Of a stretch of DNA of 64,000 nt, positions 19,862 through 23,669 are shown piece after piece. The stretch is from Escherichia coli (GTDB taxonomy: Bacteria > Pseudomonadota > Gammaproteobacteria > Enterobacterales > Enterobacteriaceae), in the NCBI RefSeq assembly GCF_022846255.1, contig NZ_AP025682.1. One strand, 5' to 3'. The notes under the pieces are model-generated. The model searched no databases. It worked only from the letters and a program-made list of their open reading frames with translations, and had not been told where the DNA came from. The translations under genes were made by a program, and so were the position numbers. The first letter of the stretch is position 1, and every line of letters begins with the position of its first letter.

Positions 19862-21325
19862 ATGTCTTTAGCAAAAGATAATATATGGAAATTATTGGCG
19901 CCCCTGGTGGTGATGGGTGTCATGTTTCTTATCCCTGTACCTGACGGTATGCCGCCGCAGGCGTGGCATTACTTTGCAGTGTTTGTGGCAATGATTGTCG
20001 GCATGATCCTCGAGCCAATTCCGGCAACGGCGATCAGTTTTATTGCGGTTACTATTTGCGTTATTGGCAGTAATTACCTGCTCTTTGATGCCAAAGAATT
20101 AGCTGACCCAGCGTTTAATGCGCAAAAACAGGCGCTGAAATGGGGTCTGGCTGGTTTTTCCAGCACCACGGTATGGCTGGTATTTGGCGCATTTATTTTT
20201 GCATTAGGGTATGAAGTTTCCGGGTTAGGCCGTCGTATTGCCCTTTTCCTGGTGAAATTCATGGGCAAACGCACGCTGACGTTGGGTTATGCGATTGTCA
20301 TTATCGACATTCTGCTGGCACCGTTTACACCGTCCAACACCGCGCGTACCGGGGGTACGGTTTTTCCGGTCATTAAAAACCTGCCGCCGCTGTTTAAATC
20401 ATTCCCGAACGATCCGTCCGCGCGTCGTATTGGCGGCTATTTGATGTGGATGATGGTCATTAGTACCAGTCTGAGTTCGTCCATGTTTGTCACCGGTGCG
20501 GCACCAAACGTGCTGGGTCTGGAGTTCGTCAGCAAAATTGCCGGTATCCAGATTAGCTGGTTGCAGTGGTTCCTCTGCTTCCTGCCGGTTGGGGTTATCT
20601 TGCTTATCATTGCGCCGTGGCTTTCCTACGTGCTGTACAAACCGGAAATCACACACAGTGAAGAAGTGGCAACCTGGGCGGGTGATGAACTAAAAACCAT
20701 GGGTGCGCTGACACGCAGAGAGTGGACGCTGATTGGCCTTGTATTGCTCAGCTTAGGCTTGTGGGTATTTGGCAGTGAAGTCATTAATGCTACTGCGGTA
20801 GGTCTGCTGGCAGTTTCGCTGATGCTGGCGCTGCACGTTGTGCCGTGGAAAGACATTACTCGCTATAACAGCGCATGGAACACGCTGGTCAACCTGGCAA
20901 CGCTGGTTGTTATGGCGAATGGCCTGACCCGTTCTGGCTTTATCGACTGGTTCGCCAACACGATGAGTACGCACCTGGAAGGCTTCTCACCAAACGCAAC
21001 GGTGATTGTACTGGTTCTGGTGTTCTACTTTGCCCACTACCTGTTTGCCAGCCTGTCTGCGCACACCGCAACCATGCTGCCGGTTATTCTGGCCGTCGGT
21101 AAAGGGATTCCGGGCGTACCAATGGAACAACTGTGTATCCTGCTGGTGCTGTCTATCGGTATCATGGGCTGTCTGACGCCTTATGCAACCGGTCCTGGGG
21201 TGATTATTTACGGCTGTGGCTATGTGAAATCAAAAGATTACTGGCGTCTTGGCGCAATCTTCGGGGTGATTTACATCTCTATGCTGCTGTTGGTTGGCTG
21301 GCCGATTCTCGCCATGTGGAACTAA
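19862..21325 (+). CDS. citT: Citrate:succinate antiporter CitT (DASS family)
   Basis: 487 aa polytopic membrane protein downstream of citG. Confidence 0.9.
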   Translation: MSLAKDNIWKLLAPLVVMGVMFLIPVPDGMPPQAWHYFAVFVAMIVGMILEPIPATAISFIAVTICVIGSNYLLFDAKELADPAFNAQKQALKWGLAGFSSTTVWLVFGAFIFALGYEVSGLGRRIALFLVKFMGKRTLTLGYAIVIIDILLAPFTPSNTARTGGTVFPVIKNLPPLFKSFPNDPSARRIGGYLMWMMVISTSLSSSMFVTGAAPNVLGLEFVSKIAGIQISWLQWFLCFLPVGVILLIIAPWLSYVLYKPEITHSEEVATWAGDELKTMGALTRREWTLIGLVLLSLGLWVFGSEVINATAVGLLAVSLMLALHVVPWKDITRYNSAWNTLVNLATLVVMANGLTRSGFIDWFANTMSTHLEGFSPNATVIVLVLVFYFAHYLFASLSAHTATMLPVILAVGKGIPGVPMEQLCILLVLSIGIMGCLTPYATGPGVIIYGCGYVKSKDYWRLGAIFGVIYISMLLLVGWPILAMWN

Positions 21326-21391: not shown

Positions 21392-21438
21392 TGATTTAAT
21401 AGATAATATTCAGTGTATGTATGAGTTCCACACCCATT

Positions 21439-22245
21439 ATGAAAGCATTCTGGCGTAACGCCGCGTTGCTCGCGGTTTCTCTGCTTCCCTTCTCTTCTGC
21501 CAACGCCGTGGCGTTGCAGGCAAAACAGTATGGCGATTTTGATCGCTATGTCCTGGCCCTCTCCTGGCAAACCGGATTTTGCCAGAGTCAACATGATCGA
21601 AATCGTAACGAACGAGATGAATGTCGCCTGCAAACCGAAACGACCAACAAAGCTGATTTTTTGACCGTACATGGTCTGTGGCCAGGATTGCCTAAATCGG
21701 TTGCTGCCCGTGGTGTTGATGAACGCCGCTGGATGCGCTTCGGTTGCGCTACTCGCCCAATCCCGAATCTGCCAGAAGCACGCGCCAGCCGGATGTGTTC
21801 ATCGCCGGAAACTGGGTTATCACTGGAAACGGCAGCTAAACTAAGTGAAGTCATGCCAGGAGCTGGCGGACGTTCCTGCCTGGAACGCTACGAATATGCC
21901 AAACACGGTGCCTGCTTTGGTTTTGATCCAGACGCATACTTCGGCACGATGGTACGCCTGAATCAAGAAATTAAAGAGAGCGAAGCCGGAAAATTCCTTG
22001 CGGATAACTACGGTAACACAGTGAGCCGCCGTGACTTTGATGCCGCCTTTGCCAAAAGCTGGGGAAAAGAGAACGTGAAAGCAGTTAAGCTAACGTGCCA
22101 GGGTAACCCTGCGTATTTAACTGAAATTCAGATCTCGATCAAAGCTGACGCCATCAACGCTCCGCTTTCTGCAAACTCATTCTTGCCACAACCACACCCA
22201 GGTAACTGTGGCAAAACCTTTGTGATTGATAAAGCAGGTTATTAA
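21439..22245 (+). CDS. rna: Periplasmic ribonuclease I (RNase T2 family)
   Basis: 268 aa from MKAFWRNAALLAVSLLPFSSANA (signal peptide); RNase T2 motifs with catalytic His (TVHGLWP and KHGACF). Confidence 0.92.
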   Translation: MKAFWRNAALLAVSLLPFSSANAVALQAKQYGDFDRYVLALSWQTGFCQSQHDRNRNERDECRLQTETTNKADFLTVHGLWPGLPKSVAARGVDERRWMRFGCATRPIPNLPEARASRMCSSPETGLSLETAAKLSEVMPGAGGRSCLERYEYAKHGACFGFDPDAYFGTMVRLNQEIKESEAGKFLADNYGNTVSRRDFDAAFAKSWGKENVKAVKLTCQGNPAYLTEIQISIKADAINAPLSANSFLPQPHPGNCGKTFVIDKAGY

Positions 22246-22474: not shown

Positions 22475-22885
22475 ATGTCCAGACCAACTATCATCATTAA
22501 CGACCTTGATGCCGAACGCATCGATATTCTGCTGGAGCAACCCGCCTATGCTGGTTTGCCAATCGCCGACGCGTTAAACGCAGAGTTGGATCGCGCCCAA
22601 ATGTGTTCGCCAGAAGAGATGCCACACGACGTGGTGACAATGAACAGCCGGGTTAAATTCCGCAATCTTAGCGATGGCGAAGTGCGTGTGCGCACGCTGG
22701 TGTATCCGGCAAAAATGACCGACAGCAATACTCAGCTTTCCGTTATGGCTCCGGTAGGTGCCGCACTGCTGGGGCTGCGCGTTGGCGATTCCATTCACTG
22801 GGAACTTCCGGGCGGCGTTGCAACCCACCTTGAAGTGCTGGAACTCGAATACCAGCCAGAAGCTGCTGGCGACTACCTGCTTTAA
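22475..22885 (+). CDS. rnk: Regulator of nucleoside diphosphate kinase Rnk (GreA/GreB-like C-terminal fold)
   Basis: 136 aa; recognised Rnk sequence. Confidence 0.9.
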
Positions 22886-23027
22886 TCCCATCTGCACAAG
22901 CGATAACTCGCTTTGCCCAGAGGATGCACTCGCATCCTCTTTCCGCTCAAATATCAACCAGATTTATCATTTTGCGCTTAAGCGCAGCATTCTAATCTGA
23001 ACTGGTTATTCATCTGCGGAACCTCAT

Positions 23028-23117
23028 ATGAGCGAAGCTCTCGGTATCACTGCATTTTATATATTCATAGCCGCAATTATTGTTGCTGCAGTGCTATACC
23101 TTGAACAACGCTGGTAG
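23028..23117 (+). CDS. 29-aa hydrophobic small protein (single predicted TM helix), possibly the small protein YldA
   Basis: ATG ORF MSEALGITAFYIFIAAIIVAAVLYLEQRW in the rnk-uspG gap; mostly hydrophobic core with charged ends; no strong SD; identification as YldA rests on memory of a 29-aa small protein in this neighbourhood. Confidence 0.4.
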   Translation: MSEALGITAFYIFIAAIIVAAVLYLEQRW

Positions 23118-23240
23118 CGCCTGGTTTTATTTATTTTCCAGCTCAATAGCAAATTCAGATCAAATCAGCCTCGCAAATCATAGATTCATAACCAATAATG
23201 TGCTGTTATGTATACATGCAAAAACAAGGAGAGAATGCTT

Positions 23241-23669
23241 ATGTACAAAACAATCATCATGCCAGTGGATGTTTTCGAAATGGAATTGAGCGACAAAGCG
23301 ATTCGCCACGCTGAATTCCTCGCCCAGGATGACGGAGTTATTCATCTACTTCACGTACTACCGGGGTCAGCCAGCCTGAGCCTGCACCGTTTTGCCGCTG
23401 ATGTACGTCGTTTTGAAGAGCATCTGCAACATGAAGCAGAAGAACGTTTGCAAACGATGGTCAGCCACTTTACCATCGATCCTTCCCGCATTAAGCAACA
23501 TGTCCGTTTTGGTAGTGTGCGGGATGAAGTTAACGAGTTAGCGAAAGAACTTGATGCAGATGTAGTAGTGATTGGTTCGCGTAACCCATCAATTTCAACT
23601 CATCTGTTGGGTTCTAACGCCTCGAGCGTAATCCGCCACGCCAATTTGCCGGTGCTGGTTGTGCGTTAA
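23241..23669 (+). CDS. uspG: Universal stress protein G
   Basis: 142 aa from [13 protein letters not shown]; Usp fold with C-terminal G-x-x-S nucleotide-binding motif ([14 protein letters not shown]). Confidence 0.92.

Follow-up and report, generated by a model that had tools for sequence, protein, structure and literature searches.

In E. coli K-12 MG1655, the order of genes in the b0607-b0610 region is rnk, yldA, ybdR (on the opposite strand), and uspG. The small gene yldA (643330-643419, 29 amino acids, between ybdR and rnk) is tabulated among newly named small proteins by VanOrsdel et al. 2018 (PMC6001520), who detected 36 of 80 SPA-tagged sORFs by immunoblot. YbdR has the ADH_N and ADH_zinc_N domains of Pfam and is a putative Zn-dependent dehydrogenase. 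In K-12, yldA and ybdR are convergent, with stop codons that are 3 nucleotides apart, and the pair appears in PMC12288877 as a convergent excludon. In the literature that we searched on ybdR, either together with phylogroups or together with uspG and rnk, we found no paper on the ybdR polymorphism that is described here.

We studied this locus in a stretch of 64,000 nucleotides from another E. coli genome (the window; contig NZ_AP025682.1). In the window, the interval from the stop codon of rnk to the ATG of uspG is exactly 355 bp (22886-23240), and ybdR is absent: with K-12 YbdR as the query and a word size of 2, the best tblastn hit in the interval had E = 0.68, and there was no remnant. A sequence-only reading of the window had given the same spacing (rnk stops at 22885 and uspG starts at 23241) and had noticed that ybdR was missing. 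Its K-12 gene order, in which an oppositely oriented ybdR separates uspG from rnk, matches the MG1655 record. It was also right that the strain is distinct from K-12 at this locus: the closest 25-kb matches to the window are from UPEC strain 536 and from F11 (99.2-99.3% identity), so by these matches the strain appears to be B2-like. The features of the locus are:

19862-21325, + strand: citT, in the upstream part of the gene order
21421-22245, + strand: rna, between citT and rnk
22475-22885, + strand: rnk (nucleoside diphosphate kinase regulator), the left anchor; an open reading frame whose stop codon ends at 22885
22894-22916 and 22919-22940, + strand: two hairpins in the 3' UTR of rnk (from RNAfold)
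22947-23222, no strand: haplotype-specific core of 276 bp, "W type" (from blastn against K-12)
23028-23117, + strand: yldA, W-type allele, 29 amino acids (from RefSeq annotation and NCBIfam NF041476)
23118-23240, + strand: spacer of 123 bp between yldA and uspG (from an alignment of Escherichia and a cross-genus comparison of spacers)
23241-23669, + strand: uspG, the right anchor (from NCBIfam NF012000)
3' of uspG, - strand: ahpF and then ahpC (from the gene order of the window)

We propose that two deeply diverged haplotypes of the rnk-uspG interval coexist in E. coli, that the window has the W haplotype, whose arrangement is ancestral within Escherichia, and that there was no recent deletion of ybdR. 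We consider this explanation to be quite probable. The W haplotype comprises rnk, its 3' hairpins, yldA(W), the 123-bp spacer, and uspG; the other haplotype (K, as in K-12) comprises rnk, the 3' hairpins, yldA(K), the convergent ybdR, a divergent promoter region of 220 bp, and uspG. The lineage of the window would never have carried the K-12 version of the locus. The K haplotype may have come into the lineage that gave rise to Shigella and to phylogroups A, B1, and E, or may have persisted there alone, and there it would have taken the place of W via homologous recombination that was anchored in the conserved flanks. If so, the strain would lack the YbdR zinc-type dehydrogenase and would make a different YldA; the antisense partner of yldA (the convergent ybdR) would be gone; and uspG would lie under a different upstream region.

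The coding sequence of rnk is nearly the same as in K-12 (99.5% nucleotide identity), and its product matches NCBIfam NF004396 with 201.6 bits (the cut-off is 109). The alignment to K-12 continues at 99.3% identity up to 22946, just past the rnk 3' hairpins, and then ends abruptly. Homology restarts, at 92% identity, at 23223, which is the ribosome-binding site of uspG, 18 nucleotides 5' of the ATG. Between these points, blastn with a word size of 7 found no alignment of the 276-bp core (22947-23222) to the corresponding 1,611 bp of K-12 (L001 3548-5158), which contain the K-type yldA, ybdR, and the divergent promoter region between ybdR and uspG. In sliding windows against K-12, most of the flanks have 0-3 mismatches per 100 bp; parts of uspG have as many as 13-17, and the count is at the baseline again past the uspG stop codon. 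Judging from these alignments, the window and K-12 differ by a block of alternative sequence, not by a gap in otherwise identical sequence. We also note a local peak of divergence from K-12 within citT (20750-21000, where mismatches rise from a background of 0-3 to as many as 12 per 100 bp), which suggests a small recombination tract within that gene.

The two hairpins after rnk (-24.2 kcal/mol from RNAfold of 22886-22950) are kept in the Salmonella and Enterobacter loci. A simple terminator scan did not call them because their T-run is too short, and scans of the rnk-uspG interval with Rfam and for promoters and terminators gave nothing usable. A 23-codon open reading frame (22924-22995; MHSHPLSAQISTRFIILLLSAAF) starts within the second hairpin and is present in all of the Escherichia W-type loci. 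It is probably not a gene, and its conservation probably just mirrors that of the hairpin and of the region upstream of yldA.

The sequence-only reading stated that the interval contained only a 29-codon open reading frame. This is indeed the sole sizeable hydrophobic open reading frame, but it went unrecognized as the conserved and annotated gene yldA. Its product (MSEALGITAFYIFIAAIIVAAVLYLEQRW) is predicted to be a single-pass small membrane protein: there is one hydrophobic stretch, with a best 19-residue Kyte-Doolittle mean of 2.67, which corresponds to a single predicted transmembrane helix. The identical protein is annotated in RefSeq as "small membrane protein YldA" (WP_001287361.1; strains A25 and 042). 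The protein from the window matches the equivalog model NF041476 from NCBIfam over its full length (residues 1-29 of 29, 59 bits, E = 3.2e-16; the cut-off is 45 bits), and K-12 YldA has a similar score (57.9 bits). The corresponding Pfam model (PF23689) gives 73.6 bits for K-12 YldA and 22.9 bits (E = 9e-05) for the protein from the window, which is below the gathering threshold of 27. That model is strongly biased to K-12-type sequence, and the match of the W allele is real though sub-threshold.

In the window, K-12, A25, and 042, yldA is directly 3' of rnk and on the same strand. An orthologue of 29 amino acids follows rnk, ahead of the next gene, in 35 of 83 related Enterobacteriaceae loci, where the C-terminal motif is AIIV.AVLYLE(R/Q)(H/R)W. 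The W and K alleles have 15 of 29 residues in common and 55% nucleotide identity. If we compare yldA from the window to that of E. albertii, all 7 of the codon differences are synonymous (0 are nonsynonymous), and for the cryptic Escherichia lineages, the synonymous and nonsynonymous counts are 3 and 0 or 4 and 1. Because all of the differences from E. albertii are synonymous, the 29-codon reading frame is a conserved gene, yldA, that is under purifying selection. Synthesis of the W-type protein is a prediction from the sequence. Both YldA alleles also have sub-threshold matches to the NCBIfam model for YoaI (30 and 22.5 bits, with a cut-off of 45), which hints at a distant paralogous relationship. 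A recent preprint (PMC11429745) describes YoaI as a small membrane protein through which signalling systems cross-talk.

From the ATG at 23241, UspG has 142 amino acids and matches NCBIfam NF012000 over residues 1-142 of 142 (313.1 bits; the cut-off is 189). The reading frame is open to an upstream ATG at 23208, and the RefSeq start is 23241. The gene is much more polymorphic than those next to it: at the nucleotide level, uspG from the window is 92% identical to K-12, against 99.5% for rnk. The divergence is concentrated in codons 1-20 and ~77-130, and the gene is a mosaic among Escherichia lineages. The coding sequence of uspG from K-12 is always closest to Escherichia alleles, not foreign; its segment from 231-390 is 93% identical to a cryptic lineage and 87% identical to the window. 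Among W-type loci, the 65 bp just upstream of uspG (~23176-23240) are nearly invariant across Escherichia, and we presume that they are the uspG promoter and leader. This block is homologous to that of the ybdR-free Citrobacter loci of the R56 type, and the K-12 uspG leader resembles the Salmonella / C. sedlakii type. In the W haplotype, yldA is co-directional with uspG, and neither RNAfold nor the terminator scan found a strong hairpin terminator between them, so it is possible that yldA is read through into uspG.

We considered one short match as a relic of ybdR. The sequence at 23179-23199 (CATAGATTCATAACCAATAAT) matches codons ~57-63 of ybdR at 18 of 21 positions (L001 4767-4787), and 0 of 100 shuffles reached this score. 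We dropped this candidate because the similarity does not extend to either side and because it sits in the uspG-proximal block that is shared with the ybdR-free Citrobacter loci. We judge the match to be coincidental.

Among 5,426 complete E. coli genomes, 1,816 have the W form across the whole rnk-uspG query, and the same 1,816 have the 276-bp W core at 80% coverage or above. The K form, with ybdR, is in 3,600 genomes, and about 10 have neither form. Among the sampled matches, the identity of the W core is at least 98.2%, with three records in a band of 90-95%, and the K block shows 98.4% or more. Variation within either form is of the degree that is usual in E. coli. Strain D8 has exactly the core of the window (100%), and most of the others are at 98-99.6%. 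The sequence-only reading had asked if reference genomes share the 355-bp spacing: K-12 does not, but 042, IAI39, and E2348/69 do, as does a third of the complete E. coli genomes overall. The W form was also found in both of the close relatives of the window, 536 and F11, and in E2348/69 and IAI39 only the 61-bp tail of rnk matches the K query. The K form was found in K-12, O103:H2, and O157:H7. We take the W reference strains to be from phylogroups B2, D, and F and the K reference strains to be from A, B1, and E, a pattern that rests on a handful of reference strains and not on all 5,426 genomes.

One genome, HH97 (NZ_CP116409.1; L003 3325-3995), is otherwise K-12-like but has a hybrid interval. 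It has the K-type yldA as far as the codons for LYLEN, and then ~75-100 bp of W-like sequence from after yldA (77.6%, with many indels). From there on, it has ybdR codons 67-2 and then a G-rich and error-like intergenic region between ybdR and uspG. Both of the junctions are at the best micro-homologies between W and K, and the haplotype switches exactly at the 23179-23199 match. We considered HH97 as an intermediate between W and K and set it aside: it is most likely a noisy or chimeric assembly, though it could be a real recombinant of W into K.

To find outgroups, we used Rnk as the query, with one genome per species, and 80 loci were returned (L004-L083). All three of the non-coli Escherichia loci in this sample, which is incomplete in that it did not include E. 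fergusonii, named E. ruysiae, or E. whittamii, are without ybdR. These are from E. albertii, from Escherichia sp. MOD1-EC7003, and from a cryptic lineage that is labelled as E. coli (95.6% identity for rnk). In all three, the gap is collinear with the window and spans 353-355 bp, and the YldA protein is identical or differs at 1 residue. Similarly, the cluster of W-type YldA at 90% identity includes entries from E. marmotae and E. albertii, and the K-type cluster has only E. coli and Shigella among its listed members. By parsimony over the outgroup loci and the YldA clusters, W would be ancestral within Escherichia and K would be derived in part of E. coli. The sequence-only reading had offered ancestral absence of ybdR as its second option, and within Escherichia this is the better one, as E. 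albertii and two cryptic species share the 353-355 bp interval and the same YldA.

Across the Enterobacteriaceae, the interval has four states:

Neither gene: a gap of 146-205 bp; Kluyvera, most Kosakonia, and the C. freundii group
yldA only: mostly 351-366 bp; Escherichia W, Citrobacter of the R56 type, Lelliottia, and Phytobacter
yldA and ybdR: ybdR is convergent with yldA; K-12, C. sedlakii, and many Enterobacter
ybdR only: yldA is absent; Salmonella, Silvania, and E. cloacae

These states are patchy across the 80 species, even within Enterobacter, Lelliottia, and Citrobacter. Losses of yldA are seen in Salmonella and in E. cloacae DSM 26481. Four loci have apparent independent deletions of ybdR (L057, L058, L019, and L020): in E. 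asburiae TN152 and Lelliottia nimipressuralis 51, the ybdR-uspG intergenic region is kept and ybdR is gone, and in C. amalonaticus AUH and Citrobacter HRGM66, which also lack ybdR, both yldA and the uspG leader are still K-like. The Escherichia W form has no trace of a ybdR deletion of that kind. Within Citrobacter, yldA is W-like in R56, NCU1, and S646 and K-like in AUH, HRGM66, and sedlakii.

K-12 ybdR is 79.5% identical (at the nucleotide level) to the genes from Salmonella and C. sedlakii, and the corresponding values are 82-83% for rnk and 77-79% for uspG. Because ybdR is about as diverged as rnk and uspG are, it is not a recent import from either of these. A search for a donor of the K haplotype gave C. 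sedlakii (93%) and Salmonella (91-92%) as the nearest YbdR proteins from outside of E. coli, which are no closer than the flanking genes are. The divergence of ybdR is as readily explained by long vertical residence somewhere in the Escherichia lineage as by import, and it is compatible with K having once been resident in an unsampled Escherichia lineage. One candidate donor, a 395-amino-acid YbdR at "94% identical", turned out to be from an ordinary K-type E. coli with a locus that is ~51 nucleotides shorter than in K-12. This 395-amino-acid form (versus 412 amino acids) is present in some K-type E. coli, on at least 24 contigs (for example, L086, GCA_012871855.1 contig DABEWN010000026.1). 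There are also dehydrogenases of 397 amino acids that are 79-82% identical to YbdR, from Klebsiella, Kluyvera, Kosakonia, Yokenella, Phytobacter, and C. amalonaticus. The loci that we sampled from the latter five have no ybdR between rnk and uspG, and this group may represent a paralogue, or ybdR itself at a different place in the genome.

The other option that the sequence-only reading had offered was a clean deletion, in which the strain or its immediate B2 lineage recently lost ~1.3 kb with ybdR from a K-12-like locus. This would account for the absence of ybdR and for an interval that is ~1.3 kb shorter than in K-12, and true deletions of ybdR are known elsewhere (TN152, L. nimipressuralis 51, AUH, and HRGM66). 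However, the sequence that is left is not that of K-12: no K-12-like sequence abuts the junction, the 276-bp core cannot be aligned, and yldA differs at 14 of 29 residues. As signs of a deletion, we looked for collinear flanks on both sides, for a remnant of the gene, and for repeats at the junction, and we found none of these. In particular, there is no remnant of ybdR at the protein level, and the check for direct repeats that had been suggested came up empty, as none are shared between the windows at the boundaries of the haplotype block. Also, the W form is present in 1,816 genomes of several phylogroups and in three other Escherichia species. We reject a recent deletion as very improbable. 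An artefact of assembly or annotation, with ybdR missing because of a collapse or a mis-join, is more improbable still. The noisy hybrid in HH97 illustrates that such artefacts can occur at this locus, but the core in the window is 100% identical to that of D8, and the large majority of the ~1,800 independent complete genomes with this core match it at 98% or more.

A more serious alternative, although we consider it to be unlikely, is that the polarity is reversed. The K form with ybdR would be ancestral (from the common ancestor with Salmonella and C. sedlakii), and W would have spread by recombination to E. albertii, the cryptic clades, and E. coli of phylogroups B2, D, and F; or else both forms would be a very old polymorphism. 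This would explain why Salmonella, C. sedlakii, and many Enterobacter also have ybdR in this position, at a divergence like that of the flanking genes, and why the leader in front of uspG in K-12 resembles the Salmonella / C. sedlakii type. W-like and K-like lineages of yldA are both present in Citrobacter, and the mosaic uspG implies that recombination does happen at this locus. But a reversed polarity requires independent replacements of K by W in several species, or a polymorphism that outlived several speciations. It also has to contend with the three out of three non-coli Escherichia loci that are W, and with a K-type YldA cluster whose listed members all come from E. coli or Shigella. 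We therefore prefer W as the ancestral arrangement within Escherichia. At a deeper time depth, ybdR is patchy in the Enterobacteriaceae, and the W form could descend from an ancestor that contained ybdR.

It is also conceivable, if rather doubtful, that the interval is an old multi-state recombination hotspot in the Enterobacteriaceae, with the W and K lineages in both Escherichia and Citrobacter arising from repeated allelic replacement between species or genera or from long-term balancing selection. If so, the module concerned would couple the promoter of a stress-protein gene to a gene for a small membrane protein and to the convergent gene for a dehydrogenase. The split between W and K (B2, D, and F versus A, B1, and E among the reference strains) would then be a functional difference in the regulation of uspG and yldA rather than neutral gene content.

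More broadly, this is an ordinary polymorphism in gene content, and all of its components are already annotated in public genomes. It illustrates that a gene that is missing relative to K-12 has not necessarily been deleted, and that the leftover reading frame can be a real and conserved small-protein gene. ybdR belongs to the accessory genes, and its distribution appears to track a deep split among the phylogroups of E. coli. The two forms have entirely different regions upstream of uspG, and their YldA proteins differ at half of their residues. This could matter for studies of UspG regulation or of YldA's function in which K-12 serves as a proxy for extraintestinal pathogenic strains.

Compared to K-12 MG1655, the window has the same flanking genes in the same order and orientation (citT, rna, and rnk, and then uspG, ahpF, and ahpC), and it has a 29-codon yldA after the rnk 3' hairpins, on the rnk strand. 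It differs in that it lacks ybdR and in that the region upstream of uspG is wholly different beyond position -18. Compared to E. coli 042, IAI39, E2348/69, 536, and A25 and to E. albertii, the architecture, the size (353-355 bp), and YldA (WP_001287361.1) are the same, and the only differences are point substitutions. The protein from the window has the features of the YldA family (NF041476; PF23689), namely 29 amino acids, one hydrophobic helix, the C-terminal AIIV.AVLYLE, and a position after rnk, and it differs from K-12 YldA in its N-terminal half.
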